The notes under the pieces: generated by a model
What the model was told of the DNA's origin: nothing
Database searches by the model: none
What the model saw: the letters and a program-made list of their open reading frames with translations, nothing else
Sequence record: MN882542
From: Escherichia phage JN01
DNA length: 64,000 nt
Reading direction: 5' to 3' (one strand)
Program-made: the position numbers and the translations under genes
Part shown: positions 1,917 through 39,981 of the stretch, in pieces
How the letters are laid out: each line of letters opens with the position of its first letter
Numbering within the stretch: the first letter of the stretch is position 1

Positions 1917-2402
1917 ATGAATTACATGGAGATTCGACCATTCGACACAGCTAATGGTGAAGGGGTTCGTGTAAGCCTCTTCGTAGCTGGCTGCAAACAT
2001 CACTGTGAAGGCTGCTTTAACAGGGAGTCTTGGAAGTTTAATGCTGGTAAAGAGTTTACTTATGCAAACCTCTACGGCATCATTAAATTAATGGATGATG
2101 AGGCCATCAGTGGGTTGTCAATACTTGGTGGAGAACCTCTTGATGACAGAAACATTCAAGAAGTCACCAACATATGTAAACGTATTAAAACTGTTTACCC
2201 AGAAAAGTCTATCTGGCTCTGGACAGGTTTTCAGTTACACGAAAAAATTCATCTAGATGTGATGAAATATGTTGACGTGGTGATTGATGGTAAGTATGAT
2301 TCTTCTAAACCAACAGTTAAACCATATCGTGGTTCTGATAACCAAAACCTCTGGAGAAAAGAGTATGGATGGCAAGGCGATTGTCAATGGCGAGCAGAGT
2401 AA
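1917..2402 (+). CDS. nrdG: anaerobic ribonucleotide reductase activating protein NrdG (radical SAM)
   Basis: CxxxCxxC cluster (CKHHCEGC) near N-terminus, about 160 aa, immediately downstream of nrdD; RBS GGTGAGG upstream. Confidence 0.85.
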   Translation: MNYMEIRPFDTANGEGVRVSLFVAGCKHHCEGCFNRESWKFNAGKEFTYANLYGIIKLMDDEAISGLSILGGEPLDDRNIQEVTNICKRIKTVYPEKSIWLWTGFQLHEKIHLDVMKYVDVVIDGKYDSSKPTVKPYRGSDNQNLWRKEYGWQGDCQWRAE

Positions 2403-2441
2403 ATCTCGTCGTAAAATTGGCTACGGAAAAGGTGAGATAAT

Positions 2442-3857: not shown

Positions 3858-4128
3858 AGAGAAGTGGGAAATTTTACCATTAGTGAGTGAAGGTGGTAAC
3901 GGTTGTGAGATGTACATGATACGTGGTCATGTCCCAGAACCGATTGCACTTGAGATGGTAAACAACTTTACAGATGGCTCTTACAAAGACTTAGGAGAAC
4001 CAACTGTCAAGCAACAATGGGTTAAACCTGTACCAGACAGCACAGGTAACTGTAGTGTACTTTATCACGTTGTAGACCCTACAAAATGCAAATCTGCAAT
4101 GGCAGTAACAAACGTAACTTTTGATTGA
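3850..4128 (+). CDS. hypothetical protein
   Basis: 92 aa ORF overlapping previous stop. Confidence 0.45.
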   Translation: MAKEKWEILPLVSEGGNGCEMYMIRGHVPEPIALEMVNNFTDGSYKDLGEPTVKQQWVKPVPDSTGNCSVLYHVVDPTKCKSAMAVTNVTFD

Positions 4129-5014: not shown

Positions 5015-5479
5015 ATGATTTTTTGCAATTTACAGAAGCACGTAATAGAGATTTTATACAAAACCTTCGGGACAGAAAACACTTTTGACTCTAACGAAGC
5101 AATTGACGCATTAAGAGAGAATAGCCTTTTTATACGAGGCCAGTCAATCAGTAATACCCGTGGGTATCTAACAATGTTAAGACAGTCTGGTGTACTGCTG
5201 ACTGTAGGGCAGGTAAAAAGCAAAGGTAGGCTAAGTATTAATCAATTAAATCGAGCCTTTATGGAGAAGCACATACAACTGTCAAGGATGCTAGATAATA
5301 CGCGTGAAGAGTTGGGGAGTTCACAAAAAGCAAGTTCATCTGATGTTAAAGATGTGGATGTACAACCTGACGTAAGATACTTTATTGCTGATGTTATGTT
5401 TAAAACACTCGATGAAGCTATTGAGCACTGCAAAAAGCATCTTATTAAAGTTAAACATGCAAAAGTTATTTGGGAGTGA
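5015..5479 (+). CDS. hypothetical protein, paralog family type A (copy 2)
   Basis: 154 aa; MIFCNLQKHVIEILYKTFGTENTFDSNEAIDAL ... AIEHCKKHLIKVKHAKVIWE. Confidence 0.6.
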   Translation: MIFCNLQKHVIEILYKTFGTENTFDSNEAIDALRENSLFIRGQSISNTRGYLTMLRQSGVLLTVGQVKSKGRLSINQLNRAFMEKHIQLSRMLDNTREELGSSQKASSSDVKDVDVQPDVRYFIADVMFKTLDEAIEHCKKHLIKVKHAKVIWE

Positions 5480-5483
5480 TGCT

Positions 5484-5864
5484 ATGATTGAACTGTTAAA
5501 AGTCCTGTATAATAAGTTTGGTTATGATAAAACTTTTACTTGTTCACAGATACGTAGTATCCATGACAAGGAATTTCCAAATGTATCCAAGACAAACAAG
5601 TCAACTCGGTTCAATCGTCTTCGCCAGAGGGGTTACATTAAAATAGTTGGATATAAGAATAACTCTTTCGAGTATGTAATGCAGATTAACAGAGAAGTAT
5701 CAAGTAAAATACTTGAAGAGCCAACAGCCGAAGAACAAAAGATACAAGATGGTGAAGTTCGCTTCTTTGTGGAGAAGGAAAGTTTTGGGTCAATAGATGA
5801 AGCTATCGAGTATTGTAAAAAGAACATTATCCAGATAAAGCGTAGAAAGGTTATTTGGGAATAA
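5484..5864 (+). CDS. hypothetical protein, paralog family type B (copy 2)
   Basis: ATG at 5484 gives MIELLKVLYNKFGYDKTF; C-terminus AIEYCKKNIIQIKRRKVIWE. Confidence 0.55.
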   Translation: MIELLKVLYNKFGYDKTFTCSQIRSIHDKEFPNVSKTNKSTRFNRLRQRGYIKIVGYKNNSFEYVMQINREVSSKILEEPTAEEQKIQDGEVRFFVEKESFGSIDEAIEYCKKNIIQIKRRKVIWE

Positions 5865-9168: not shown

Positions 9169-11535
9169 ATGCGCATGGTAAACGACCACGCAGAAGTGAT
9201 TAAGAGTTCAACTTCTTTAGAGACATCTCAAGCACAGATTACAATGACACCTGAAATGTTCAGCCTTCTGAGTTCTGGTGTATATACCTTTAAAGAGCGA
9301 GCAGTAATTCGTGAACTGTCATGTAACGCAGTAGATGCTCAGAAAGAAGCTGGAAAAGAGAACATCCCGTTCCATGTGCATTTACCTACTCGTTTTGAGC
9401 CTTACTTTGAAGTTCGTGATTTTGGAACTGGATTGACTCATGATAAAGTTATGAGTTTGTATCTAAATTACGGGGCTTCTACGAAGAATGACTCTAATGA
9501 CTACATTGGTGCAATGGGTATCGGCTCAAAATCTCCATTTGCAATCGCTCAGTCATTCACAGTATCTAGCTATGTTGACGGTGTTGTTAATAAGTACTCT
9601 GTTTATCTTGAGAATGGTATCCCTCAAGTAACTAAACTTACCACTAACCCAACAAAAGAACCTAATGGATTAGCTGTACGTGTAGCAGTTGCTGACCATC
9701 GTATTTCAAAGTTCTTTGAAGAGGCTGGTAATGTATACTCATACTTTGCTGTAAAACCAGAAAGTAATATCGAGTATGACGATGTGTTAGCAGATATGAA
9801 TGTTATTGCCCGTGAAGAAGGTGTTTATGATGCCATGATTCATAAGCAAAGCTGGCGTTCTAGTGGTAATAGGACAGAATTTAATGTGGTGATGGGTAAT
9901 ATTGCCTATCCAGTGAATATGGAAGCATTACTTGGTGATGATTTCTTCAAAGTATTGCCAGAATTTTTCCGTAGGAGCGTAGACCTTGTAAACATCTACA
10001 TGCCTATTGGTTCAGTTGCTATTGCAGCTTCTCGTGAAGCATTGCAGATGAATGACACGACAAAAAATGTTATCATCGAGGCTACTAAAAAGATAACTGA
10101 AGCAATTACAAAGGATGTTATCAAGAAAGTTAATAGCCAACCTACACTCATGGATGCTGCACAGGCTTATGCTGAGTTACGCTTGAACTCACGAGAGATG
10201 TTTAATGCTGTGTGTCCAAAGCTAGAGTGGGGTGGTGTTAAGCTTGATTCTCTGGAAGAAGAATTACTAAACATTCGTCGTGGAATTATCTACGCAGAAG
10301 ACGGCTCAGTCATTTATGAACGTGACGGTAAAGGTAATATTAAGGTTGATAGGAACGGAAACAACATCCCTAAAGTAGATTATCTTTATAATCCAGTTGC
10401 TTATGTCAAGTTCAACTCTTTAGAGAGTAAGATTCGTGCAACATCGCTTTCCTACACTCAAGAGGCAAGTATGTTCAATATCTTTGGCGCAATGCGTAAA
10501 AGCCAAATTGAACAGTTTTTGTTTGTTATCAATGACCGTCGCAATAAAAACGGTACTGAGAAAACTGTAGGACGCAACCAGATTCTGCGTGGTGCATGTC
10601 GAGACTATGCCAGCGAGTCAAGTCTGTTTCACAGATACAATGGCATTGTCTTTGTATTCTCTACTGAGAAAGAGCTAGATGATTTAATCAATCTGCACAA
10701 ACTTGATAAAAGCTTGTTAAAGATTGTGAAGATGTCTGATAAGGAACACCATTATCAGCGTAAAGAAGCTGTAAGAGGTGTTGTAAAACTCTGGAAAGCT
10801 GTTCCAGCAGAAGGTGTAGCTTCATACAAAGAGGTGTCAGAAGACTTAGATACGATTGAAGAGCCTCAGCTTTATATTAAGGCAGTAGGTGACACAGTTG
10901 ATGGCGAATGTTTTTGCTCATCTCCAGAAGATGTAGCTAAGTCAGTTGCCAATGTCATTGAAAAGACAGTCTATGTTTTCCGAAAAGCAAATTGGAAAAA
11001 GATACCAGAAGACTGGATTGAAGTAGATGAGAAGCTCTTGAACGACAGCTTAACTGATGTTCACTGGATTAATCATAACAGGTATATGACACGTATCTAT
11101 ATGAATGGTGTCCTTGACCTTACAAGCAGTTGGATTATTGCCAGAAACTTTACGTTCAATAACAGGAAGATTTCTCGTGGTTATTGCTATTCACGAGACA
11201 CAAACAAAACTATCTTCTTAGAAGGTAATGAAGATGCTGTTGAGGCAATGTTTGGCAAAATCCAATACGTTGCTGCACCGTTTGCATACACTTATACTGT
11301 TAGTCGGTTGCAAACTTTGAAAGAGTGCCTTGACAACGATACAAAGCTGTACAAGAAAATTAAGAAAGCTGGTGACCGTATGGTCATTAAGGTGACAAAC
11401 TACCTTTCAAAAAGAAAACAAGAAAACTTCTTGCTTTCTCATTTAGATTGGAATAAAGTGTCACCCATAGAAGTGAGTAAGTTCTTAGGTTTTGATGTGA
11501 AGTGTGTTCCAGAAGGAACTACAATTTACGATTAA
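9169..11535 (+). CDS. rIIA: rIIA-like protein with GHKL/HATPase-type N-terminal domain
   Basis: 788 aa; Bergerat-fold motifs ELSCNAVDA, RDFGTGL, GIGSKSPF near N-terminus; size and fold as in T4 rIIA; followed by an rIIB-sized gene. Confidence 0.55.
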   Translation: MRMVNDHAEVIKSSTSLETSQAQITMTPEMFSLLSSGVYTFKERAVIRELSCNAVDAQKEAGKENIPFHVHLPTRFEPYFEVRDFGTGLTHDKVMSLYLNYGASTKNDSNDYIGAMGIGSKSPFAIAQSFTVSSYVDGVVNKYSVYLENGIPQVTKLTTNPTKEPNGLAVRVAVADHRISKFFEEAGNVYSYFAVKPESNIEYDDVLADMNVIAREEGVYDAMIHKQSWRSSGNRTEFNVVMGNIAYPVNMEALLGDDFFKVLPEFFRRSVDLVNIYMPIGSVAIAASREALQMNDTTKNVIIEATKKITEAITKDVIKKVNSQPTLMDAAQAYAELRLNSREMFNAVCPKLEWGGVKLDSLEEELLNIRRGIIYAEDGSVIYERDGKGNIKVDRNGNNIPKVDYLYNPVAYVKFNSLESKIRATSLSYTQEASMFNIFGAMRKSQIEQFLFVINDRRNKNGTEKTVGRNQILRGACRDYASESSLFHRYNGIVFVFSTEKELDDLINLHKLDKSLLKIVKMSDKEHHYQRKEAVRGVVKLWKAVPAEGVASYKEVSEDLDTIEEPQLYIKAVGDTVDGECFCSSPEDVAKSVANVIEKTVYVFRKANWKKIPEDWIEVDEKLLNDSLTDVHWINHNRYMTRIYMNGVLDLTSSWIIARNFTFNNRKISRGYCYSRDTNKTIFLEGNEDAVEAMFGKIQYVAAPFAYTYTVSRLQTLKECLDNDTKLYKKIKKAGDRMVIKVTNYLSKRKQENFLLSHLDWNKVSPIEVSKFLGFDVKCVPEGTTIYD

Positions 11536-11616: not shown

Positions 11617-12726
11617 ATGACTACTAAAACTAAAGCACAGATTGACGCAGAAATCTACAAACTGGTTAAAGAAGGTAAGCTGACTAAAACAGCTATTGCA
11701 CAGAAGTTCAATACCTCAACCCGTTCAGTTGGTCGTGCTGTAGAGCGTCATGAAGCAACTTTAAAAGGTAAGAAAAAGGTAGCTTCGACACCAGCTAAGA
11801 AGACTTTGAAGCAAGTTGCTAAGTCAGTTAAAAAGAAAGCTGGAAAACCAGTTGAAAAGGTTGTTAAAGACACTGTACAGAAAGTTCCAGTAAATAAACT
11901 GCACGAAGCTATGCAGAAAGATGACAAGATTGAGTACATGATTACTGGCGACTCTGTAATTATGACTTACGGTTCAGAATCTGAAATTGTTGAGTCTACT
12001 CATCCGAACTATCAAGAGATTGTAGTTCACGTTGTGAAAGGTGAGTTCAAGAAAGCATTTGAACTGATGAACATTCGTAAGTCTATCGAAAACTTCACTC
12101 AGGGTGCTATCACAATCAAAGGTGACAAGTTATTCTACGGTGCTGTTGAGATGCGTTCTACTCTGGTTGACCGTATTCTTCACATGATGAAGACTGGTGA
12201 TAAAGGTTTTGAACGACTTGTAATGTTCTTCGAAAAACTGATGGAAAACCCATCTAAAGACTCCGTAGAACAGCTTTGGGGATTTGTATCTCACCTTGAT
12301 GTTGAAATTGATGAAGAAGGCTACATCATTGGTTGGAAGAAAGTTTCTACTCGTGAAGGCAAGCTGGTTGACTCCCACACCTACAAAGTGCCTAATGATT
12401 TGGGTAACATTGTAGAAATGCCACGTTGGATGGTTGATAACAACCGTAACGTAACTTGCTCTCAGGGTCTTCATGTTGGTGCTTGGGATTATGTTCGTTA
12501 CTTCTCAGGTGATACAATCCTGAAGGTTCGTGTCCATCCACGAGATGTTGTATCTGTTCCGACTGATTACAACGATATGAAGATGCGTTCATCCCGTTAT
12601 GAAGTTGCAGCAATCGTTGATAATCAACGTAAAGTTCTGAAAGCATGGGATGGTAAGACTGAAGCTTTGCATGTCATCGTTGGTACTGCTGGGGAACTCA
12701 TCTCTCAACGCAAACGTGAAATCTAA
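11617..12726 (+). CDS. rIIB-like protein (by position and size), Lys-rich N-terminal region
   Basis: 369 aa ORF immediately downstream of rIIA-like gene; no independent motif. Confidence 0.4.
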   Translation: MTTKTKAQIDAEIYKLVKEGKLTKTAIAQKFNTSTRSVGRAVERHEATLKGKKKVASTPAKKTLKQVAKSVKKKAGKPVEKVVKDTVQKVPVNKLHEAMQKDDKIEYMITGDSVIMTYGSESEIVESTHPNYQEIVVHVVKGEFKKAFELMNIRKSIENFTQGAITIKGDKLFYGAVEMRSTLVDRILHMMKTGDKGFERLVMFFEKLMENPSKDSVEQLWGFVSHLDVEIDEEGYIIGWKKVSTREGKLVDSHTYKVPNDLGNIVEMPRWMVDNNRNVTCSQGLHVGAWDYVRYFSGDTILKVRVHPRDVVSVPTDYNDMKMRSSRYEVAAIVDNQRKVLKAWDGKTEALHVIVGTAGELISQRKREI

Positions 12727-12826: not shown

Positions 12827-13375
12827 ATGAAGAAGTTGATTCTAGGTTTGTGCTTAATGTTTACAGCACAATTATCTTATGCAGTTGACTGCCCAGAGCT
12901 ATCAATTAGCCAAAAAGTAAACATGTTAAAAGCTTACCAGTATGGTGAGAATAATATGGGTAAAGGTTGGGGTATCACTCTAGCTGCTATAGCCTTACAA
13001 GAGTCAGAGTTAGGTCTGAATATGGAGAATAAAAAGACCCATGACTATGGTATCTTCCAGAATCACTTGAAGACTGTTGTAAAGCGTAACAAAATCAGTC
13101 CTAATGTGGCTAAAAAGAAACTCTTAAAAGACTTTGACTATGCTGCAAAGGAAACACACAAAGAGCTTGAGTTTTGGACGAAGGTGCATGGTCAACCAAA
13201 GTCAAAGAAGACTTTACAAAAAGTTTTAGCGTCATATAATGCTGGGTATTCGTACAAAATCCCTAAAGCTAAGAAATACTCTCAAGATGTCTACAACAAT
13301 ATGAAAGTTATTGCTCAATGTGAATTTGCAACAAACATTTCTAAGGTAAACCATGAAAAAATTAAGAAAGTCTGA
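12827..13375 (+). CDS. secreted protein, possible lytic transglycosylase (SLT)-like
   Basis: N-terminal signal peptide (MKKLILGLCLMFTAQLSYA); LQESEL and DYGIFQ loosely resemble SLT catalytic E-S and GLMQ motifs. Confidence 0.4.
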   Translation: MKKLILGLCLMFTAQLSYAVDCPELSISQKVNMLKAYQYGENNMGKGWGITLAAIALQESELGLNMENKKTHDYGIFQNHLKTVVKRNKISPNVAKKKLLKDFDYAAKETHKELEFWTKVHGQPKSKKTLQKVLASYNAGYSYKIPKAKKYSQDVYNNMKVIAQCEFATNISKVNHEKIKKV

Positions 13376-14048
13376 TGAAGTCCTGTGTCATGCTTATGAC
13401 TTACATCCTCATGAGTTAGGTCTTGATTCCTGTGTATGGACGTCAGAACAGTGCAGGGATTTTGAAGACACTGCAAGAGAAGTTGTATGTTCACTTGAAG
13501 AGTTCCACACATCAGAACCAATTGTGAACGTTGTGGACAAAGAAACTGGACAATCTATAGGTGTAAGACGTGACAGTTTAGTTATAGTCAATAAAGACCT
13601 TGTAGAAAAAGGTAACCTCATCTTAGCAGATATTGATGGTGTTCTTACAAATTTTAATCACGAAGACTGCTCAACGGAACTGATTGATGGGTCATTTTCA
13701 CAGTACACTAATTTGCTTGACTCTGTAAGTGCAAAACCAACGTATGTTTTCAATATTATTGATGCAATTGCTAACCATGCTGCCATTGGACTCTTGACAG
13801 CGAGGGGTGAATCTCAGAGAATACCTACTGAGATGTTTTTAAGGCATTACATAGAACATGATTACATGCTTTTCATGCGTGGTTTTGGAACTAACTCTAT
13901 AAGTGCAGAAAGTTTAAAAGTTAGGATGATTCAGTCTTGCATTCTTCCTTACTTTAATATAGTATGCTTTATAGAAGATACAGAGAAGAATGTTCAGAAG
14001 GTAAACAGAATCCTTCCACACATTAAAACCATGTTAGTCAAACATTGA
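13353..14048 (+). CDS. hypothetical protein with HAD-like phosphatase motif
   Basis: 231 aa; LILADIDGVLTNF matches HAD motif I (hhhDxDG[TV]). Confidence 0.4.
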   Translation: MKKLRKSDEVLCHAYDLHPHELGLDSCVWTSEQCRDFEDTAREVVCSLEEFHTSEPIVNVVDKETGQSIGVRRDSLVIVNKDLVEKGNLILADIDGVLTNFNHEDCSTELIDGSFSQYTNLLDSVSAKPTYVFNIIDAIANHAAIGLLTARGESQRIPTEMFLRHYIEHDYMLFMRGFGTNSISAESLKVRMIQSCILPYFNIVCFIEDTEKNVQKVNRILPHIKTMLVKH

Positions 14049-14058: not shown

Positions 14059-14523
14059 ATGAACAATATCATTACGGTAGCACTGGACGATACGACAAAC
14101 AAATCTGTAGTAGTTCGTAAATTGATTCAAGGTAACTTTGAAGGTAAAATTTTTCGTGCTGTTAATGTAAAAGCTGATGGCAGCATTCGTGAATATCGTG
14201 CATTGTTGAATGTTAAAAAGCACGTAAAAGGTGCTGGTTCAACGACTGCACACAAAGAAAACCTGATGACTATCTATGATATGGGTAAGGCTTCAGAGTT
14301 AGGTGCTGAAGGTATCGTTAAAGAAGGTGCTCCGTATCGCTCTTTCAATCTGGAAACTACTCTTATGCTTTCCTTTACAAGTGGTTCTAAAACAATCACT
14401 TACCTCTTTACTGATGCTGCAACGGTATCTGCTATCAAGGATAGCACCGTCAAAGCTGGGGTAGCTGCTGCTGCAAAAGCTTCTTCGATGGCTGCAAATG
14501 TCCTTGCTAAAGTCCTCGGTTAA
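14059..14523 (+). CDS. hypothetical protein
   Basis: 154 aa ORF with Ala-rich C-terminus. Confidence 0.5.
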   Translation: MNNIITVALDDTTNKSVVVRKLIQGNFEGKIFRAVNVKADGSIREYRALLNVKKHVKGAGSTTAHKENLMTIYDMGKASELGAEGIVKEGAPYRSFNLETTLMLSFTSGSKTITYLFTDAATVSAIKDSTVKAGVAAAAKASSMAANVLAKVLG

Positions 14524-14535
14524 GGTTAAGATACA

Positions 14536-14562
14536 GGCTCCTTCGGGAGCCTTTTTCATTTC
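14536..14562 (+). terminator. intrinsic terminator
   Basis: GGCTCC-ttcg-GGAGCC hairpin followed by TTTTTCATTT. Confidence 0.65.
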
Positions 14563-14575
14563 AGGAGATTGTTAA

Positions 14576-14923
14576 ATGACATTTAAAGAGTTCTGCCAAG
14601 CTACTTTCATAATTGTTTTCTTAGTTGGGGCAGGTGTCTGGGGAGGATACTCTTACAGAGACTACCAAGTTGCTGAAACTGAGCTAAATAATGAGAAACT
14701 AATAAGTGTTGCTAAAGACGCTTATCAGGAAGGTTTAGCCACACTCAGCACCAATTACAAAAATGATTTGAAAGATGTGCTTGCTAAGAATAAGCACACA
14801 AAAGAGGTACTAACGTATGAAAAGACTAAGCCAGAGTTTTATAATGTTTGTGTTACTGATAATTATGTCAGGGTGTTCAACGAACAAAGTGAACAGTACA
14901 TTCAAAAACTCCCAAGTAAGTGA
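14576..14923 (+). CDS. candidate i-spanin (inner-membrane spanin)
   Basis: 115 aa; N-terminal TM helix (FIIVFLVGAGVWGG) then charged helical periplasmic region; overlaps a lipoprotein ORF in another frame as in Rz/Rz1. Confidence 0.45.
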   Translation: MTFKEFCQATFIIVFLVGAGVWGGYSYRDYQVAETELNNEKLISVAKDAYQEGLATLSTNYKNDLKDVLAKNKHTKEVLTYEKTKPEFYNVCVTDNYVRVFNEQSEQYIQKLPSK

Positions 14924-15086
14924 GAGTGACAAGTACACTCAAGAAGAATCAAGATTCACTGTCAAAGGTAATACTGGCAGCGATGTGGCAGCAGCCCTTG
15001 AGTTTTATCGTGATGGTTTTTACCAGTGCACAATCAAAGCTAATAACCTTATTGATATGATTTTATTAGGAAACAAACAGCAATGA
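14817..15086 (+). CDS. candidate o-spanin (outer-membrane lipoprotein)
   Basis: Signal peptide with lipobox (LLIIMSGC); start embedded in 3' third of the i-spanin candidate in a different frame. Confidence 0.45.
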   Translation: MKRLSQSFIMFVLLIIMSGCSTNKVNSTFKNSQVSESDKYTQEESRFTVKGNTGSDVAAALEFYRDGFYQCTIKANNLIDMILLGNKQQ

Positions 15087-15352
15087 CAGAGAATGAAGAT
15101 ACTTTCTATGTAGAAGGGTACTTACTACTACCACGACCAAAAGAAACTTATATGCGGGTTGATTTCTCACCAACCATTATGGATAACGTGATGTGCCATA
15201 TCTTTATGCAAGGTGTCACAGCACAGCTTAAGCATGTTGGTAAAGAGTGCAAAATAAAGGTTGACACTCATCCAGAAATCAAAGAGAATCACTACACATG
15301 GTTCTTACCAGACTCTAAAGAAATCTTAGCAGTTCTTAAAACGAGGAAATGA
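15083..15352 (+). CDS. hypothetical protein
   Basis: 89 aa ORF, start overlaps previous stop. Confidence 0.45.
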   Translation: MTENEDTFYVEGYLLLPRPKETYMRVDFSPTIMDNVMCHIFMQGVTAQLKHVGKECKIKVDTHPEIKENHYTWFLPDSKEILAVLKTRK

Positions 15353-17166: not shown

Positions 17167-17204
17167 GAAACTCTGTAGAATATTCACAATAGACTAAGCC
17201 TTTC

Positions 17205-17250
17205 TTATCTGGTAAATTTTTCAGGTAAGGAGGGCTTTTTTATTTCAGGA
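17205..17250 (+). terminator. candidate terminator after macro-domain gene
   Basis: Imperfect inverted repeat ending GGAGGGC followed by TTTTTTATTT. Confidence 0.35.
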
Positions 17251-30227: not shown

Positions 30228-30692
30228 TTACTTTGGATATACACTGTCAAGATAAATGTCAGCTTCCATTCTACGTCTGTTTTTCAGGCCGTTTGAAGTG
30301 ACCTTCTTACCCTTGACTGTAACCTTGTTCCACCACTGCATAGCTTCTGCACAACCTACCTTATTACCAGCATTGTGGCGCTTGATAAATGTAGAATCCT
30401 GCATAGCTGTGATACCGATGTTGTATGTTTCACTTACAAGTGCATCGAACTCATTCTGAGAGGTTGGAACCTTGATAGCTTTATTCACTGCTGCAACGAA
30501 CTTCTCAACATCTGCAAGAAGATACTGTTCAGCCTGTTCAGCAGTAATTTTCATACCCAGCTTAACAGGTTTTCCGTCAATACGGATTGTACCATACCCG
30601 ATTGTTGGGATTCCGGCAGAGTCTTCGTAAGCCTCTAACTTCAGACCTTCAAAGAACTTGATAGCTTCTAAACCTTTTCTTGAGAGTTGCAT
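30228..30692 (-). CDS. endolysin, GH24 T4-lysozyme-like muramidase
   Basis: N-terminal LEAIKFFEGLKLEAYEDSAGIPTIGYGT matches the phage lysozyme catalytic E...D...T motif; 154 aa. Confidence 0.8.
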   Translation of the reverse strand: MQLSRKGLEAIKFFEGLKLEAYEDSAGIPTIGYGTIRIDGKPVKLGMKITAEQAEQYLLADVEKFVAAVNKAIKVPTSQNEFDALVSETYNIGITAMQDSTFIKRHNAGNKVGCAEAMQWWNKVTVKGKKVTSNGLKNRRRMEADIYLDSVYPK

Positions 30693-31576
30693 TATGCCTC
30701 CCCTGTTGGGTTAACTGTAACTGTTGCTGCATTAGATGTTACAGAGCCACCTGCGCCAGTCACTACACAGGTATAGCTTCCTGCATCAGCAGTAGTTGCA
30801 CCTTCTTTGGTGTAAGTTGCAGCAGTTGCGTCTGGGATGACTTCCTCACCTTTCTTCCACTGGTAACCTGTTGCACCGGTTGCCACAACATTCAGCGTTA
30901 AGGTTTCACCTTCAGTGATTTCTTGATTTGCTGGCTGTTGAGTGATAACTGGCAAAGCATTCACAGTTACTGTTGCTGCATCTGAGGTGACACTTGTTCC
31001 ACCATCTCCAGAGACAACACAAGTGTATGAACCAGCATCAGAAGGTGCTACGGATGGTTTTGTGTAAGTTGCAGAAGTGGCACTAGGAATGTCCTCACCA
31101 TCTTTCTTCCACTGATAACCAGTGGCATTAGACGCAACAACACTCAGAGTAAGTGTCCCACCTTCATTGACTGTTTGGTTTGTTGGTTGCTGAGTGATTG
31201 ATGGTGGTGTGATGGCATCTTTCAACTTAGCATTCAGCATTGAGAAAGGTTTAACTCTTGCCAGCCATTCACAGTAAATTGTGTCAACATCTTTACCGTT
31301 GATGATTGCATACTGTAAATCCATGAAGAAATCAGCAGTTCTCATCTGTGCACCAACACTGTAAAGGAGTTCATCACTAAAAGGAACTTTGTAGTCTGGT
31401 TTGTAGTCAAACTTCTTAACTTCTGCGATGTCAGCTTCAGGCCAATATGAGCTATAGGTGAGTGGTAAAATAGCTTCTTGATATGTTCTAAAATCATATC
31501 TCTTACCAGCCTTTACATTTGCGATGAAACCCTTCACAAATTCTTTGAAGTCTGGGTAAGTCTTTGCTTTAATCAT
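30692..31576 (-). CDS. protein with N-terminal paralogous domain and two C-terminal Ig-like domains
   Basis: Two about 85 aa repeats with YQWKK...SYTCVV, typical of Ig I-set-like domains; N-terminal 120 aa paralogous to 31573..31944. Confidence 0.6.
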   Translation of the reverse strand: MIKAKTYPDFKEFVKGFIANVKAGKRYDFRTYQEAILPLTYSSYWPEADIAEVKKFDYKPDYKVPFSDELLYSVGAQMRTADFFMDLQYAIINGKDVDTIYCEWLARVKPFSMLNAKLKDAITPPSITQQPTNQTVNEGGTLTLSVVASNATGYQWKKDGEDIPSATSATYTKPSVAPSDAGSYTCVVSGDGGTSVTSDAATVTVNALPVITQQPANQEITEGETLTLNVVATGATGYQWKKGEEVIPDATAATYTKEGATTADAGSYTCVVTGAGGSVTSNAATVTVNPTGEA

Positions 31577-35234: not shown

Positions 35235-35308
35235 CTCTGTTTAGCTCAGCTTGGTAGAGCGTTCCGTTTGGGGCGGTAAGGCCGGAGGTTCAAGTCCTCC
35301 AACAGAGA
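35235..35308 (+). tRNA. tRNA-Pro(TGG)
   Basis: Hand-folded cloverleaf, anticodon loop TTTGGGG, T-arm GGAGGTTCAAGTCCTCC, CCA encoded. Confidence 0.7.
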
Positions 35309-35318
35309 CCAAATTAAT

Positions 35319-35392
35319 GTTCCAGTAGACAAAATGGTAAAGTCACCACTCTTTCAAAGTGGATATTTGAGGGTTCAAATCCCTTCTGGAAT
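35319..35392 (+). tRNA. tRNA-Glu(TTC)
   Basis: Acceptor GTTCCAG/CTGGAAT, anticodon stem-loop CCACT-CTTTCAA-AGTGG, T-loop TTCAAAT, CCA encoded. Confidence 0.7.
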
Positions 35393-35403
35393 GCCAGTTT
35401 TGA

Positions 35404-35476
35404 CAGAAGACCAATTACAGCAAGTTTAATCTTATTCATCTGACACGAAATCGGACAAAGAAGAGATTTGGTCTGG
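35404..35476 (+). ncRNA. stem-closed structured element A (Y-RNA-like candidate)
   Basis: 5' arm CAGAAGACCAA pairs with 3' arm TTGGTCTGG; conserved ACAGCAA box after 5' arm. Confidence 0.35.
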
Positions 35477-35487
35477 TCATTAAGAAT

Positions 35488-35561
35488 TGCGGGTATAGAG
35501 AAAGGGCGTCTCACATGTCTCATTAGCATGGTATCGGCAGGTTCGACTCCTGCACCCGCCT
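35488..35561 (+). tRNA. tRNA-Met or Ile2 (CAT), slightly atypical acceptor/D junction
   Basis: Anticodon stem-loop CATGT-CTCATTA-GCATG, T-arm GCAGGTTCGACTCCTGC, CCA encoded; 1-72 pair mismatched. Confidence 0.55.
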
Positions 35562-35570
35562 CCAATTTTG

Positions 35571-35630
35571 CAGAAGACCGTATTCAGCAACAAACTACTT
35601 TTTGCGGATAAAAGAAAAAACACGGTCTGG
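35571..35630 (+). ncRNA. stem-closed structured element B (Y-RNA-like candidate)
   Basis: 5' arm CAGAAGACCGT pairs with 3' arm ACGGTCTGG; the two bases beside GACC covary relative to element A (AA/TT vs GT/AC). Confidence 0.35.
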
Positions 35631-35641
35631 CAATGTATTAA

Positions 35642-35715
35642 GGTTAGGAAGCACATAAGGTATGTGCGGTCGCCTGTTAAGCGAATGGCACAGGGTTCGA
35701 ATCCCTGACTAACCG
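35642..35715 (+). tRNA. tRNA-Asn(GTT)
   Basis: Acceptor GGTTAGG/ACTAACC, anticodon loop CTGTTAA, T-arm CAGGGTTCGAATCCCTG, CCA encoded. Confidence 0.65.
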
Positions 35716-35727
35716 CCAAATTTAAAT

Positions 35728-35812
35728 GTGTCGTTATCCCGTAGATGGTAGCGGTGGGGACTGTAAATCCCTTGTCATTGAGACTCGGTAGGTTCGACTC
35801 CTACACGGCACA
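35728..35812 (+). tRNA. tRNA-Tyr(GTA), class II
   Basis: Anticodon stem-loop GGGGA-CTGTAAA-TCCCT, long variable arm, T-arm GTAGGTTCGACTCCTAC, CCA encoded. Confidence 0.7.
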
Positions 35813-35821
35813 CCAAATAAA

Positions 35822-35895
35822 GGTTATGTAGTTTAACTGGTTAAAATACTCCCCTGTCACGGGAGATGATGAGGGTTCAAATCCCTTCGTAACCG
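35822..35895 (+). tRNA. tRNA-Asp(GTC)
   Basis: Acceptor GGTTATG/CGTAACC, anticodon stem-loop CTCCC-CTGTCAC-GGGAG, T-loop TTCAAAT, CCA encoded. Confidence 0.7.
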
Positions 35896-35984
35896 CCAAA
35901 TTATAATAAGTATTTCAAAATGCTGTTTGAGAGGGCTATTTAGCCTCTCCCTTAAAGAGTTCTTACGAGTATTCTTTAAAGGAG

Positions 35985-36061
35985 CAGAAGACCAAATTCA
36001 GCAAGTACGTATGATATTTTCAAGCCAATTTAATTTTGAAAAAATTTAAAACTTGGTCTGG
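35985..36061 (+). ncRNA. stem-closed structured element C (Y-RNA-like candidate)
   Basis: 5' arm CAGAAGACCAA, ATTCAGCAA box, 3' arm TTGGTCTGG. Confidence 0.35.
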
Positions 36062-36074
36062 CTCAACAAATTTA

Positions 36075-36206
36075 CAGAAGACCGTTTACAGCAAAACTTA
36101 AACAATCTATTTCTCCGGTAAAGAAAAGGCGAAGGTTCGATTCCTTCACTCGGCAGGTGTCGAGTTGGTGTAATGGTAGCACTTAAGATGATAAACAACG
36201 GTCTGG
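36075..36206 (+). ncRNA. stem-closed element D with embedded tRNA-like module (YrlA-like Y RNA candidate)
   Basis: Arms CAGAAGACCGTT / AACGGTCTGG enclose hairpin TTTCT-CCGGTAA-AGAAA, T-arm GAAGGTTCGATTCCTTC, capped helix ACTCGGC-AGGT-GTCGAGT and D-arm GTGTAATGGTAGCAC. Confidence 0.45.
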
Positions 36207-36216
36207 TAATTATCTT

Positions 36217-36354
36217 TGTAGATAAGTTATTAAGCTTACCTGTGAGTATGCGACCACAAAGGGTGAAAGGGTAAATTCTAGATTTAAACCCAACAATGCA
36301 CATCGCTACAGACCTTAAGCAAGTCTGGGTAGCTTATCTACAAAGATAATTTAA
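36217..36354 (+). ncRNA. structured element E: 21 bp inverted repeat pair around a CAGACC...GGTCTG hairpin
   Basis: TTATCTTTGTAGATAA at 36221 and its reverse complement TTATCTACAAAGATAA at 36335; inner hairpin CAGACCTTAAGCAAGTCTGG. Confidence 0.3.
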
Positions 36355-36355
36355 T

Positions 36356-36428
36356 GGAAGTGTAGCAGAATGGTGATGCGGCAGACTTTTAATCTGACAG
36401 GCGATGGGTTCGAATCCCTCCACTTCTA
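36356..36428 (+). tRNA. tRNA-Lys(TTT)
   Basis: Acceptor GGAAGTG/CACTTCT, anticodon stem-loop CAGA-CTTTTAA-TCTG, T-loop TTCGAAT, CCA encoded; paralog of 38064..38135 with compensatory stem changes. Confidence 0.6.
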
Positions 36429-36435
36429 CCAATAT

Positions 36436-36509
36436 GGTTCAGTCGCAGATAAGGTAATGCAGGGGTTTCATAAGCCCTATGAATGTGGGTTCGATTCCCA
36501 TCTGAACCT
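36436..36509 (+). tRNA. tRNA-Met(CAT)
   Basis: Acceptor GGTTCAG/CTGAACC, anticodon stem-loop GGGGT-TTCATAA-GCCCT with three G-C pairs, T-arm GTGGGTTCGATTCCCAT, CCA encoded. Confidence 0.65.
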
Positions 36510-36513
36510 CCAA

Positions 36514-36586
36514 GCTGGTATAGTTAAGAAGGTTATAACACTCCCCTGATAAGGGAATATCGGTGGTTCGATTCCACCTACCAGTA
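36514..36586 (+). tRNA. tRNA-Ile(GAT)
   Basis: Acceptor GCTGGTA/TACCAGT, anticodon loop CTGATAA, T-arm GGTGGTTCGATTCCACC, CCA encoded. Confidence 0.7.
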
Positions 36587-36604
36587 CCAATTTCAATAAA
36601 GTTG

Positions 36605-36633
36605 TTGACATTGAGATGTGACTACTTTATAGT
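36605..36633 (+). promoter_or_regulatory. candidate sigma70-type promoter inside tRNA cluster
   Basis: TTGACA, 17 bp spacer, TATAGT. Confidence 0.5.
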
Positions 36634-36956
36634 AACTGAAAATAATTCAGCATATGTATAATTCAAACACCAATACATGAGCGTTAGACGTAACACAATG
36701 TGGGGAAATTTGTTGTACATATTCTGAATAGTTTTCGTTGCGTAGCGTCTATTTTGCAAATTTAAAATAAATGCAAACGACAATGTTTTTCTGGCAGTAG
36801 CTTGATAGGCTAAACACCAGTGAGGTCTTCCAATCCCTCATCAAAGAATTTGGCGTACTCGCCCACGGTATGATTAATAAGGTGGGCAACATTCTAAAGG
36901 GTATCCCTTATGGGGCTTGGCTTAAATGCAATGAGTACCCTTTAAAATGTTAATTA

Positions 36957-37035
36957 CGGGGCGTATCTCAGCGGTCTTCTAAACCGCCGTTAACCGAGTA
37001 AGTGGAGTATGCGGGTTCGAGTCCTGCCGCCTCGA
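36957..37035 (+). tRNA. atypical tRNA-like gene, Arg(TCT)-type anticodon loop, no recognisable D-arm
   Basis: Acceptor CGGGGCG/CGCCTCG, anticodon stem-loop GCGGT-CTTCTAA-ACCGC, T-arm GCGGGTTCGAGTCCTGC, CCA encoded; only 7 nt between acceptor and anticodon stem, 23 nt variable region. Confidence 0.4.
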
Positions 37036-37053
37036 CCAATTTTGGATGAAATC

Positions 37054-37401
37054 ATGAAAACTTGTATTAGGTGCAAACTTAGCAAGGATGAAAGTGATTT
37101 CTACATGAAAGATGGTAGGAGAACTCATTCATACTGTAAAAAGTGTGTTAATGAGCAAACCATAGAAAGACAAAGAGCACTTAAACTTTCAGCTATTGAG
37201 TACAAAGGTGGAGTTTGTCATGATTGTGGTAAAAGGTATCATCCAGCAGTGTATGACTTCCATCATTTGAATCCTTCAGAGAAAGATTTTAACATTGGTC
37301 ATAGAAAAAGTCTTAAGTTCTCTCAGGAGCTAAAGGACGAACTTGACAAATGTGTTTTGCTATGTTCAAATTGCCATAGGGTAAGACATGCAAAGTATTA
37401 G
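37054..37401 (+). CDS. HNH endonuclease (homing-endonuclease-like) inside the tRNA cluster
   Basis: CxxC...CxxC zinc pairs with HNH core DFHHLNPSEKDFNIGH...CSNCHRVRH; ORF-track start 37009 falls in the tRNA-like T-arm, ATG at 37054 preferred. Confidence 0.75.
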   Translation: MKTCIRCKLSKDESDFYMKDGRRTHSYCKKCVNEQTIERQRALKLSAIEYKGGVCHDCGKRYHPAVYDFHHLNPSEKDFNIGHRKSLKFSQELKDELDKCVLLCSNCHRVRHAKY

Positions 37402-37538
37402 TTAGCAGATTGCTTAGACGACCTTATCGGGTCTCCGTGTAAGGAGGTGGTCTGTATCTCATGTTTTCCAGAACATGTAAATAATCTGAGAAGGGGCTTT
37501 ACAGTGTTGTGAGAATACGGTAAGCTTCGAATTATAGT

Positions 37539-37618
37539 GTGGGACGATGTTAAGACTCTAAGGCATGAGCAACGGCCTCCAAAACCGTTTCAAAGTGGTT
37601 CAACTCCTCCGTCCCATG
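37539..37618 (+). tRNA. atypical tRNA-like gene, Trp(CCA)-type anticodon loop, oversized D region and weak T-stem
   Basis: Acceptor GTGGGAC/GTCCCAT, anticodon loop CTCCAAA in stem ACGG/CCGT, T-loop TTCAACT, CCA encoded; may be degenerate. Confidence 0.35.
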
Positions 37619-37633
37619 CCAAAGTCTTATTAG

Positions 37634-37721
37634 GGGTAGGTAGCGGCTAATGGTAGCCAAACTGTCTTGAAAACAGTTGCCACTGTAGAGATACGGTGAG
37701 GGTTCGACTCCTTTACTTACC
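37634..37721 (+). tRNA. tRNA-Ser(TGA), class II
   Basis: Anticodon stem-loop ACTGT-CTTGAAA-ACAGT, long variable arm, T-arm GAGGGTTCGACTCCTTT. Confidence 0.7.
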
Positions 37722-37879
37722 GCCTAATAAGATTTAAAGCCAAGCTTCATTCGGATGTTGCTTTGGTATCCCTCGTGTATTGTCGTACACACTGATAAAG
37801 CACCTAGTAGGTGTCACGGAGAAGAGATAATATCAAGCTCTCCAAAGGTTCTAGTCACCGGATTAAACAAGACTATGCA

Positions 37880-37908
37880 AAGACCTATTTAGGTCTTTTT
37901 AGAGGGCT
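37880..37908 (+). terminator. hairpin with T-tract inside tRNA cluster
   Basis: AAGACCTA-ttt-AGGTCTT followed by TTTAGAG; repeats the AGACC/GGTCT arm motif. Confidence 0.4.
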
Positions 37909-37979
37909 TCTAAGGTTATTACAGCTTGTTGTGGAACCTTGTTGCTTAGGTTCTTAGAAGTTCTCTAAAAAGATTTAAT

Positions 37980-38053
37980 GCACCTATAGCCCAACTGGTA
38001 GAGGCAGCAGACTTAGAATCTGCTCAGTGTGAGTTCGAATCTCTCTAGGTGTA
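37980..38053 (+). tRNA. tRNA with anticodon TAG (Leu by anticodon), short variable arm
   Basis: Anticodon stem-loop GCAGA-CTTAGAA-TCTGC, 3 bp D-stem, 5 nt variable loop, discriminator A, CCA encoded. Confidence 0.5.
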
Positions 38054-38063
38054 CCAAATTAAT

Positions 38064-38135
38064 GCAGGTGTAGCAAAATGGTTATGCGGCTGACTCTTAA
38101 TCAGTAAGACGATGGGTTCAATTCCCTCCACCTGT
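38064..38135 (+). tRNA. tRNA-Lys(CTT)
   Basis: Anticodon stem-loop CTGA-CTCTTAA-TCAG, T-loop TTCAATT, CCA encoded. Confidence 0.6.
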
Positions 38136-38144
38136 ACCAAACAT

Positions 38145-38218
38145 TGGGGATGTAGTTTACATGGTTAAAACATAAGTTTTGCAAACTTAAGTACAGGGTT
38201 CAATTCCCTGCTTCTCCA
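38145..38218 (+). tRNA. tRNA-Ala(TGC)
   Basis: D-arm GTTT...AAAC, anticodon stem-loop TAAGT-TTTGCAA-ACTTA, T-arm CAGGGTTCAATTCCCTG, CCA encoded. Confidence 0.7.
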
Positions 38219-38226
38219 CCAATTAG

Positions 38227-38298
38227 TGCATCCATAGTTTAAACGGGAAAATTACAGTCTTCCAAACTGAGGTTGAGGGTTCGATTCCCTCTGGATGC
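38227..38298 (+). tRNA. tRNA-Gly(TCC)
   Basis: Acceptor GCATCCA/TGGATGC, anticodon loop CTTCCAA, T-arm GAGGGTTCGATTCCCTC, CCA encoded. Confidence 0.7.
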
Positions 38299-38308
38299 TC
38301 CAAATTAA

Positions 38309-38382
38309 TGCTCCTATCGTATAATTGGCTATTACGGTTGCCTTGTAAGCAACTTATCAGGGTTCGAATCCTTGTGGGAGCA
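38309..38382 (+). tRNA. tRNA-Thr(TGT)
   Basis: Anticodon stem-loop GTTGC-CTTGTAA-GCAAC, T-arm CAGGGTTCGAATCCTTG, CCA encoded. Confidence 0.7.
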
Positions 38383-38388
38383 CCAATT

Positions 38389-38476
38389 CAGAGGTCAAGT
38401 GAAAGACCGCTGGTGTCAACTGAAGACCGTAACAAATTCCACGGAGTTGAGTTAGCGGCACAACTTCAGACCTCTT
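38389..38476 (+). ncRNA. structured element F (multi-stem, GAAGACCGT motif)
   Basis: Outer stem CAGAGGTC/GACCTCT; nested pairs CCGCT/AGCGG, CAACT/AGTTG, CCGT/ACGG; contains CTGAAGACCGTAAC related to elements A-D. Confidence 0.35.
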
Positions 38477-38480
38477 TCAT

Positions 38481-38552
38481 ACTCGCTTAGTTTATATGGT
38501 AAAACATCACCCTTACAAGATGGAGAAAAAGGTTCAAGTCCTTTAGTGAGTA
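38481..38552 (+). tRNA. tRNA-Val(TAC)
   Basis: Acceptor ACTCGCT/AGTGAGT, D-arm GTTT...AAAC, anticodon loop CTTACAA (one stem mismatch), T-arm AAAGGTTCAAGTCCTTT, CCA encoded. Confidence 0.55.
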
Positions 38553-38556
38553 CCAT

Positions 38557-38631
38557 GTTCCAGTATCCCAATTGGCAGAGGATGCAAGCTCAAACCTTGT
38601 ACTAGTGACGGTTCGAATCCGTCTTGGAACA
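38557..38631 (+). tRNA. tRNA with anticodon CAA (Leu by anticodon), short variable arm
   Basis: Anticodon stem-loop GCAAG-CTCAAAC-CTTGT, T-arm GACGGTTCGAATCCGTC, discriminator A, CCA encoded. Confidence 0.5.
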
Positions 38632-38639
38632 CCAATTTT

Positions 38640-38712
38640 GCAGGATTAGTTCAAATGGATAGAGCAACAGTCTACGAAGCTGTTAATAGGGGTTCGAATC
38701 CCTTATCCTGCG
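38640..38712 (+). tRNA. tRNA-Arg(ACG)
   Basis: Acceptor GCAGGAT/ATCCTGC, anticodon stem-loop ACAGT-CTACGAA-GCTGT, T-loop TTCGAAT, CCA encoded. Confidence 0.7.
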
Positions 38713-38733
38713 CCAGATAAGTAAGAGTGATTT

Positions 38734-38976
38734 ATGCAAACATTAATCGTCGTTGAACATGAAAATTCCAATAGCATTGAGTTTGTAAGGGTTCCCACTA
38801 TAGATACCCACATTTTCTTGAAAGTAGGCTGGGAATGTGACCCAATAAGAGTAGAAAAATTTATTGGTCATTACTTTGGTGGAAGACAACTTAAAAGTGT
38901 TAATTTTGAGACAATGTTACCAGAAAACTCAGAAACAAATAATAATGTTTACCTCCTTACAAGGATTAGACAATGA
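38734..38976 (+). CDS. hypothetical protein
   Basis: 80 aa ORF within tRNA cluster, weak RBS. Confidence 0.35.
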   Translation: MQTLIVVEHENSNSIEFVRVPTIDTHIFLKVGWECDPIRVEKFIGHYFGGRQLKSVNFETMLPENSETNNNVYLLTRIRQ

Positions 38977-39530
38977 GATATTTGAAGTATGTTTCATGGA
39001 TTTTCTTAGCTTTGCTAGAGCCATTTGCAGCAATCTTAGCAGTCATCTTAGCACCTTTTGTAGTTCTATTCTACAGTGAGAAGAGAGGACACTTACCTTT
39101 CGGCTTCAGATGGATGGAAACATATGACAACCCAATTGATGGTGATAAAGGTCATGTCGAACGATGGGCTAAGATTAGAAAGATTGGTAAGCTTGGTATC
39201 TATATGCAGAGAGTTGGTTGGCTCTGGAGAAACAAAGCTTATAACTTCTCTTACCATGTGTTAGGAAGAGATGTAAAAGATGTTACTAAGTGGAAAGGTA
39301 ATATCAATGTAAGTTCTAACCCTGAAGATAATCAGACAGGTTATCTCCTAATGTGGAACAGTAATGCTTGGGGATTATTCGCTTTTATCCCATCAATTAA
39401 ACTCTTTGGTAAGCAATTCTACTGGAGAATTTATGTTGGATGGAAACTTAAAAGTGTTGTTCCAAAAGAAAGAGCATTCTCAAGGGAAAGAGTTATGTTG
39501 GCATTCTTTATTCATCCACTGAGAAAGTAA
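38973..39530 (+). CDS. hypothetical membrane protein
   Basis: 185 aa; hydrophobic N-terminus (WIFLALLEPFAAILAVILAPFVVLF), Trp-rich. Confidence 0.45.
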   Translation: MRYLKYVSWIFLALLEPFAAILAVILAPFVVLFYSEKRGHLPFGFRWMETYDNPIDGDKGHVERWAKIRKIGKLGIYMQRVGWLWRNKAYNFSYHVLGRDVKDVTKWKGNINVSSNPEDNQTGYLLMWNSNAWGLFAFIPSIKLFGKQFYWRIYVGWKLKSVVPKERAFSRERVMLAFFIHPLRK

Positions 39531-39538
39531 AGATTTAA

Positions 39539-39611
39539 AGGGGATTAGTTTACAAGGTTAAAACCTCGGTCTTTGAAATCGAAGAAGTTGGTTCAATTCC
39601 AACATCCCCCG
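39539..39611 (+). tRNA. tRNA-Gln(TTG)
   Basis: Anticodon stem-loop TCGGT-CTTTGAA-ATCGA, T-arm GTTGGTTCAATTCCAAC, CCA encoded; 1-72 pair mismatched. Confidence 0.6.
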
Positions 39612-39616
39612 CCAAT

Positions 39617-39692
39617 GCTCCATTACTCCAATTGGCAGAGAGGCCAGACTTAAAATCTGTGTTATGTATCGGTTCGAATCCGATATGGAGTA
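39617..39692 (+). tRNA. tRNA with anticodon TAA (Leu by anticodon), short variable arm
   Basis: Anticodon loop CTTAAAA, T-arm ATCGGTTCGAATCCGAT, discriminator A, CCA encoded. Confidence 0.5.
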
Positions 39693-39700
39693 CCAAATTT

Positions 39701-39773
39701 AGCGGTATAGCATAACTGGTAATGCAGCAGTCTCTGAAGCTGTCTTATTAAGGTTCAAATCCTTATGCCGCTG
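39701..39773 (+). tRNA. tRNA-Gln(CTG)
   Basis: D-arm GCAT...ATGC, anticodon stem-loop GCAGT-CTCTGAA-GCTGT, T-arm TAAGGTTCAAATCCTTA, CCA encoded. Confidence 0.55.
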
Positions 39774-39807
39774 CCACTTCTAAGGATTCTTACGAGAGCC
39801 CTTAAAT

Positions 39808-39880
39808 GTGGCCTTATCATAAATGGTAATGACCCATGCTGTGAACATGGTCTATACGGGTTCAAATCCCGTAGGTCACC
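39808..39880 (+). tRNA. tRNA-His(GTG)
   Basis: Anticodon stem-loop CCATG-CTGTGAA-CATGG, T-arm ACGGGTTCAAATCCCGT, CCA encoded. Confidence 0.7.
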
Positions 39881-39888
39881 CCAATTTA

Positions 39889-39963
39889 TAGTCCAAGTAG
39901 CTTATATGGTTAAAGCGCGTGTCTGAAAAACATGAGAAGAGGGTTCAAATCCCACTGGACTAC
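39889..39963 (+). tRNA. tRNA-Phe(GAA), irregular acceptor/D junction
   Basis: D-arm GCTT...AAGC, anticodon stem-loop CGTGT-CTGAAAA-ACATG, T-loop TTCAAAT; acceptor register ambiguous. Confidence 0.5.
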
Positions 39964-39981
39964 CAATTTCAAAGGTGCTTA

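Follow-up and report, generated by a model that had tools for sequence, protein, structure and literature searches.

A probable two-component spanin of overlapped architecture in a Felix O1-like Escherichia phage

The gene pair and its surroundings

The window analyzed here is a stretch of 64,000 nucleotides from Escherichia phage JN01 (sequence record MN882542), and it represents a Felixounavirus. Its closest relative is Escherichia phage EC6, which is 98% identical over the spanin region. More than 200 Felixounavirus genomes are 90-98% identical to this region, and many of them annotate the two genes described below as 'Rz-like spanin', 'i-spanin' or 'o-spanin'. The window is laid out in three blocks: a plus-strand block with the spanin pair, a minus-strand block with the endolysin gene (25.6-32.6 kb), and a plus-strand tRNA region followed by the structural module. 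The tRNA region holds 25 tRNA genes (35235..40890), a cluster expected in a Felix O1-like phage. The spanin-containing block includes rIIA (9169..11535), rIIB (11617..12726), a gene for an exported SLT-like protein (12827..13375, matching PHROG 600, 'unknown function'), a PseT-like polynucleotide kinase gene (13353..14048), and a 154-aa gene (14059..14523) that is the upstream neighbor of the pair and ends with its stop codon at 14523. Between the pair and a strong terminator (17196..17237), which closes the block, there are six small plus-strand genes and then a gene for a macro-domain protein.

The first gene of the pair, the i-spanin gene, occupies positions 14576..14923 on the plus strand and encodes 115 residues. 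The earlier note, made from the letters of the window, had placed an open reading frame here with an N-terminal transmembrane (TM) helix, and both the open reading frame listing and a direct reading of the sequence agree with it. The gene is preceded by a Shine-Dalgarno sequence, AGGAG (14563..14567), with an 8-nt spacer to the ATG. The protein contains a single hydrophobic segment at approximately residues 6-26 and is hydrophilic thereafter; the best 19-residue Kyte-Doolittle (KD) window covers residues 6-24 (FCQATFIIVFLVGAGVWGG), with a mean of 1.75. This TM segment is retained in all i-spanin homologues that we compared. The remaining 88 residues are predicted to form a periplasmic domain, which contains a conserved cysteine (Cys92) and ends in an invariant QKLPSK. 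A single-sequence AlphaFold2 model of the protein is all-helical, but its pLDDT of 48.7 makes it unreliable. For the i-spanin of Felix O1, 66% helix and no coiled coil have been predicted (Kongari 2018, PMC6139136).

The second gene, the o-spanin gene (14817..15086, plus strand, 89 aa), has its start codon inside the i-spanin gene, 241 nt from the beginning and in the +1 frame, and continues beyond the i-spanin stop codon. The Rz/Rz1-like overlapped arrangement that the earlier note had recognized is therefore present, with a dual-coding overlap of 107 bp (14817..14923) in which frame 0 encodes the C-terminus of the i-spanin and frame +1 encodes the signal peptide and N-terminus of the o-spanin. 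The o-spanin Shine-Dalgarno sequence, AAGAGG (14802..14807), is itself part of the i-spanin gene and is separated from the ATG at 14817 by 9 nt. At the other end of the gene, the TGA stop codon (15084..15086) shares bases with the start codon of the following gene (15083..15352, plus strand, PHROG 4391, unknown function) in the sequence ATGA. The translation of the two genes may therefore be coupled at 15083..15086, in a tightly packed unit that extends up to the terminator at 17196..17237.

A conserved, terminator-like hairpin (AGGCTCC-TTCG-GGAGCCT followed by a T-run) lies on the plus strand just before the pair, at 14535..14560, with the hairpin itself at 14535..14552. It lies in the gap between the upstream stop codon at 14523 and the i-spanin ribosome-binding site, and there is no room left for a promoter. 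The hairpin is retained in 30 of the 32 Felixounavirus and Mooglevirus loci. Hairpins with other stem sequences are found before the i-spanin gene in phiEa21-4 (where the hairpin is annotated as a terminator), SkaterBoy, Hafnia phage SarahDanielle and Yersinia phage P778; in the distant loci that we retrieved, they lie at ~2390..2420 (L032), ~2246..2265 (L034), ~1925..1950 (L036) and ~1945..1970 (L037, P778). The stem differs among Felixounavirus, Kolesnikvirus, the Hafnia phage, the Yersinia phage and a phiEco32-like podovirus, and no such hairpin is present in Carvaje, Isfahan and Wc4-1, whose i-spanin gene directly adjoins the one before it. These features suggest that the spanin genes may be expressed by read-through of the terminator.

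Two coding frames and the start of the lipoprotein gene

To see whether both frames are coding, we compared a 511-nt block in 32 sequences (29 unique), namely the window, 29 loci from viral contigs and two GenBank phages, covering 76-100% i-spanin identity. In the part that encodes only the i-spanin, diversity at codon positions 1, 2 and 3 is 0.079, 0.055 and 0.221, respectively, and the ratio of synonymous to non-synonymous codon changes in frame is 324:154. In the 160 nt that encode only the o-spanin, the corresponding diversities are 0.083, 0.054 and 0.328, and the ratio is 377:124 in frame versus 11:493 and 33:481 off frame. Within the 107-bp overlap, diversity is only 0.04-0.06 at every codon position of either frame, compared with 0.22-0.33 at the third positions of the flanking single-coding parts, and the synonymous to non-synonymous ratios are 43:54 in the i-spanin frame and 23:78 in the o-spanin frame. 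This uniformly low diversity is the signature of a double constraint. No stop codon was found in either frame among the 29 unique sequences. Taken with the codon-position pattern, this indicates that both genes are real and under purifying selection. We considered whether 14817..15086 could be a chance open frame that is not expressed, as short open reading frames are generally frequent in AT-rich phage DNA, which is the only point that speaks for it. The third-position diversity of the o-spanin frame and its in-frame ratio refute this reading, and the frame also stays uninterrupted in every relative, even at 30% protein identity; we regard the chance that it is correct as negligible.

The o-spanin is predicted to be a lipoprotein. 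Its signal peptide comprises residues 1-19, and the N-terminus reads MKRLSQSFIMFVLLIIMSG|CST, with a basic n-region (K2 and R3), an uncharged hydrophobic core (mean KD 3.1) and the lipobox IMSG|C, as had been proposed for this frame. The lipobox cysteine, Cys20, is encoded at 14874..14876, and the residue at +2 is serine, not aspartate. The sequence satisfies a PROSITE PS51257-type lipoprotein pattern, and with Met at -3 it lies outside the strictest consensus, [LVI][ASTVI][GAS]C. We applied a simple lipoprotein rule to all possible starts of at least 50 codons in the six frames of the 64-kb window, and among these 908 candidates it picked only the start at 14817. Because the signal is unique among so many starts, the coincidence of a lipobox with the 3' end of a gene for a TM protein is not due to chance. 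The mature protein would have 70 residues without any proline; it contains a conserved cysteine (Cys71) and ends in an invariant NNLIDMILLGNKQQ. After the signal peptide, the maximum of the 11-residue KD profile is 1.2, at the C-terminus. A unimolecular spanin of the T1 gp11 type was ruled out, as the 89-aa lipoprotein has no second hydrophobic segment.

We note that GenBank records often start the o-spanin too late, at Met17 (14865) or Val25 (14889), and thereby cut off the lipoprotein signal. Such starts are used in the records of Pr103Blw and EC6, with examples at 3867..4088 (L001) and 3891..4088 (L002), and the largest cluster of o-spanin proteins (P0026, 303 members) consists of a 73-aa form without the signal peptide. 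If one of these starts were the true one, the o-spanin would have no signal peptide and would not be a lipoprotein. We consider this extremely unlikely. In each of the 32 related loci, GAGGT stands 9 nt ahead of the ATG at 14817, and relatives with only 30-40% identity still show a K/R n-region, a hydrophobic core and SG|C or SA|C within residues 1-20. Moreover, misplaced starts are a typical error of gene callers on overlapped spanin genes (Kongari 2018, PMC6139136). Some Felixounavirus papers report only the i-spanin or only the o-spanin, and late start calls probably explain these reports of a single spanin subunit.

Relatives and known spanin systems

Database profiles agree with the spanin assignment for both proteins. 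The i-spanin matches PHROG 1152, 'Rz-like spanin', over residues 1-115 (E=8e-42). The o-spanin matches the unnamed PHROG 4180 (E=9e-51) and, weakly, PHROG 456, 'Rz-like spanin' (E=6e-5). Neither protein matches a Pfam spanin family at E<=1, which leaves both outside the Rz and Rz1 sequence families. Pfam and NCBIfam scans of the two proteins otherwise returned sub-threshold noise, and the weak matches to NCBIfam lipoprotein families cover the signal peptide only.

The closest described counterpart is the Felix O1 pair p014/p015, which SpaninDB lists as 'ovl', with 115 and 89 aa and a 107-bp overlap (Kongari 2018, PMC6139136). The Felix O1 genes lie at 5330..5678 and 5571..5841, and each product has one periplasmic cysteine (PMC6139136). 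The window pair has the same lengths, overlap, architecture class and number of periplasmic cysteines per subunit, and the two pairs differ by point substitutions only. The i-spanin is identical to p014 at 113 of 115 residues (98%, two differences), and the lipobox is TMSG|C in Felix O1 and IMSG|C here (LISG|C in Moogle). Both Shine-Dalgarno contexts are shared with Felix O1, that of the i-spanin gene being identical and that of the o-spanin gene differing by one base upstream of the ATG; the Shine-Dalgarno sequence that SpaninDB gives for p015 is itself identical to ours (Kongari 2018, PMC6139136). EC6 is listed in the SpaninDB 'JH2' families, which have 15 i-spanin members, including phiEco32-like phages, and 11 o-spanin members (PMC6139136). 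The window proteins belong to this JH2 / PHROG 1152 family by full-length similarity.

The pair is kept in related phages: all 31 close loci have a TM protein and a lipoprotein overlapping it in the +1 frame, with Ser or Thr at +2. In tblastn searches of phage genomes, the i-spanin matched 402 phage records and the o-spanin 319, including distant homologues of both proteins outside Felixounavirus at 26-40% identity. A search of a protein collection with the o-spanin returned only close relatives (at least 74% identity) and no distant members. The distant pairs come from a phiEco32-like podovirus, two siphoviruses and other Ounavirinae. Their overlaps are 116-164 bp, and in the distant loci inspected the lipobox is MSAC, ISAC, IAGC, MSGC or TASC, with Ser or Thr at +2 in each. 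Each subunit has one conserved periplasmic cysteine, located in the motifs YEK-TK..F.N.C and E.Y.D.Y..C...N.L.D; C92 of the i-spanin and C71 of the o-spanin are invariant even in relatives at 30-40% identity. The most invariant stretches of the family are C-terminal, QKLPSK and EFYRDG.Y.C..K.NNLIDMILLGNKQQ. A TM i-spanin, a lipoprotein signal on the o-spanin, overlapping genes and periplasmic cysteines are the sequence features of a two-component spanin, and all of them are present here. Among known systems, 507 of 528 have at least one periplasmic cysteine for homotypic intermolecular disulfides (Kongari 2018, PMC6139136).

Comparison with other spanin systems places the pair more precisely. 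P2 LysB/LysC is the prototype of the overlapped class: there, too, the o-spanin gene begins in the +1 frame within the 3' portion of the i-spanin gene and ends beyond the i-spanin stop codon. P2 lysB/lysC sit in a lysis cassette, whereas the window pair is unlinked, and the likeness to P2 described here is one of architecture class. As in lambda Rz/Rz1, a type II inner-membrane protein and an outer-membrane lipoprotein, both with periplasmic cysteines, would be encoded by shared DNA in different frames, but the architecture is embedded in lambda and overlapped here. Lambda Rz has two coiled-coil helices and two cysteines, unlike the Felix O1 i-spanin, which has no predicted coiled coil and an 88-residue periplasmic domain; mature Rz1 has 40 residues and is proline-rich, in contrast to the 70 proline-free residues of the mature o-spanin here. 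The T4 genes PseT.3/PseT.2 are named for their position beside pseT, the polynucleotide kinase gene, and the polynucleotide kinase gene of the window (13353..14048) sits two genes upstream of the pair. The T4 subunits (117 and 83 aa) are similar in size to those of the window (115 and 89 aa), but T4 has a separated architecture with both cysteines in the o-spanin, whereas the window pair is overlapped with one cysteine per subunit. The T4 spanin genes resemble the window pair also in being unlinked to the holin and endolysin genes (Kongari 2018, PMC6139136).

Based on the PHROG 1152 match, the Felix O1 p014/p015 entry and the annotated GenBank relatives, we conclude with high confidence that the pair is the overlapped two-component spanin proposed in the earlier note, and that it belongs to a Felix O1-like phage (Felixounavirus).

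Separation from the endolysin and proposed role in lysis

The endolysin of the window is a GH24 enzyme (T4-lysozyme type) encoded on the minus strand at 30228..30692 (PF00959, E=1.6e-40; PHROG 7 endolysin, E=2e-57), where it had been placed before. It lies ~15.1 kb from the spanin pair on the opposite strand. The protein has no N-terminal hydrophobic segment, and it is therefore a soluble, holin-dependent enzyme. The gene directly upstream of it (30692..31576, minus strand), whose stop codon overlaps the endolysin start, encodes two tandem repeats of ~90 residues, each resembling an Ig-like domain (…TLTL.VVA..ATGYQWKK…DAGSYTCVV…).

Neither a holin-like gene nor an endolysin gene adjoins the pair, in line with the earlier description, and apart from the pair, the only open reading frame nearby with a TM segment is that of the signal-peptide gene at 12827. 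A scan for small TM proteins found none flanking the pair. As an endolysin gene takes this place in relatives, the upstream neighbor at 14059..14523 was considered as a degenerate endolysin gene and rejected, as we found no similarity to the endolysin. The 'putative holin' gene of Moogle, which sits after the tail-fiber genes, has no homologue within the window according to the small-TM scan and a homology search. Its counterpart EC6 gp058 (L040, 1784..2155), which encodes 123 aa with an N-terminal TM helix and a long helical tail and is 93% identical, maps ~0.65-1.0 kb past the end of the window (equivalent to ~64.65-65.03 kb).

By pointing out the distance between spanin and endolysin genes, the earlier note implied that it is unusual. 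It is not: published genome notes on Felix O1-like phages, including the Meda note, document scattered lysis genes as normal for this group, and in T4, too, the spanin genes lie away from t and e (Kongari 2018, PMC6139136). Adjacency to holin and endolysin genes is frequent among spanin genes, but it does not define them. While the window pair stands outside a lysis cassette, homologous pairs in four other phages stand directly after an endolysin gene or within a holin-endolysin cassette. In the Klebsiella siphovirus Carvaje, the order is holin, GH24 lysozyme, membrane protein and then the pair. In the Proteus siphovirus Isfahan, it is Phage_holin_8 (9.7e-14), a small open reading frame, a CHAP endolysin (3.4e-8) and then the pair. 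In the Yersinia myovirus P778 (L037, 1472..2493) and the Pectobacterium myovirus Wc4-1 (L039, 1294..2276), a GH24 endolysin gene is directly upstream of the pair, and the window endolysin is 57% and 45% identical to these two endolysins, respectively. Judged by gene order, the neighborhoods in these four relatives tie the putative spanin family to lysis. Since an orthologous endolysin gene abuts the homologous pair in the Ounavirinae-like phages P778 and Wc4-1, a rearrangement that broke up an endolysin-spanin unit, rather than a difference in function, seems to have placed the two 15 kb apart on opposite strands in Felixounavirus.

The same neighborhoods bear on the possibility that the pair has some other task in the envelope, for example to exclude superinfecting phages or to block a receptor in the manner of the T5 Llp or Cor lipoproteins, and has only a spanin-like topology. 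Its place beside rIIA/rIIB and early-type genes, away from the endolysin, would fit such a role, as would the lack of matches to the Pfam spanin families. No exclusion lipoprotein is known to depend on an overlapped TM partner. The homologous pairs that follow endolysin genes or end holin-endolysin cassettes in four other phages argue against this role, and so do the single conserved periplasmic cysteine of each subunit and the invariant C-termini, which are expected of interacting spanin subunits. In favor of caution, we found no published experimental test of the JH2-type (Felix O1-like) family in the literature; essentially all spanin experiments have been done on lambda Rz/Rz1, and tests in T4 and T1 have also been reported (Kongari 2018, PMC6139136). 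Further points that speak against the spanin reading are the missing Pfam matches, Met at -3 of the lipobox, the short periplasmic domains, the Felix O1 i-spanin having no predicted coiled coil, the proline-free mature o-spanin, and the location of the genes behind a terminator-like hairpin in a block with rIIA/rIIB and genes of nucleotide metabolism. Overall, we believe that a non-lytic envelope function is very unlikely and that the pair acts as a spanin.

For the action of this spanin we propose a model by analogy with lambda Rz/Rz1 and T4 PseT.3/PseT.2, from which we infer lipidation, complex formation, disulfides, membrane fusion and their timing. The 115-aa product would be held in the inner membrane by its N-terminal TM helix and expose 88 residues to the periplasm. 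The 89-aa product would be exported by Sec, lipidated at Cys20, cleaved by signal peptidase II and, with Ser at +2, sorted by Lol to the outer membrane. The periplasmic domains would bind each other through their conserved C-terminal regions, and each subunit is probably a covalent homodimer linked through its single conserved cysteine (C92 in the i-spanin and C71 in the o-spanin). The peptidoglycan mesh would restrain the complex until an unlinked holin releases the GH24 endolysin, which would destroy the wall. With the wall gone, the complexes may collapse and fuse the inner and outer membranes, thereby completing lysis.

A further protein that may act on the wall is encoded three genes upstream of the spanin pair. 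The signal-peptide, SLT-like character attributed to the gene at 12827..13375 was borne out by its motifs, by a profile search of PDB sequences and by the predicted fold. Aligned with homologues down to 30% identity, the protein keeps E59-S60, G75..Q78, S136-Y-N-A-G140 and Y151. A single-sequence search against PDB sequences gave no match, and the profile search found the lytic transglycosylase EtgA (E=0.0035) and goose lysozyme. The predicted model, which is confident (pLDDT 83.9), resembles g-type lysozymes, MltE, Slt70 and phiKZ gp144, with weak Foldseek E-values and a TM-score of ~0.5. The profile and fold matches are thus weak, but they agree with each other. The protein would be a second, exported wall-degrading enzyme beside the cytoplasmic GH24 endolysin. 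The gene order of SLT-like protein, polynucleotide kinase, small genes and spanin pair is also found in a distant Hafnia phage. One could imagine that the hairpin at 14535..14552 is a dedicated control of spanin dosage or timing, the pair being expressed by read-through alone, and that the SLT-like enzyme weakens the wall independently of the holin as an aid to the spanin. We consider this combination doubtful, with a small chance of being correct, and even if hairpin control or cooperation with the SLT-like enzyme proved true, the pair would still be a known spanin.

On record as a spanin since at least 2018, and annotated in many of its GenBank relatives, the pair carries little weight as a discovery. 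Its value lies in annotation: in the comparison across relatives neither gene is ever missing, and the correct start of the o-spanin gene emerges from it, which is of practical use for the many Felixounavirus records whose o-spanin start removes the signal peptide.
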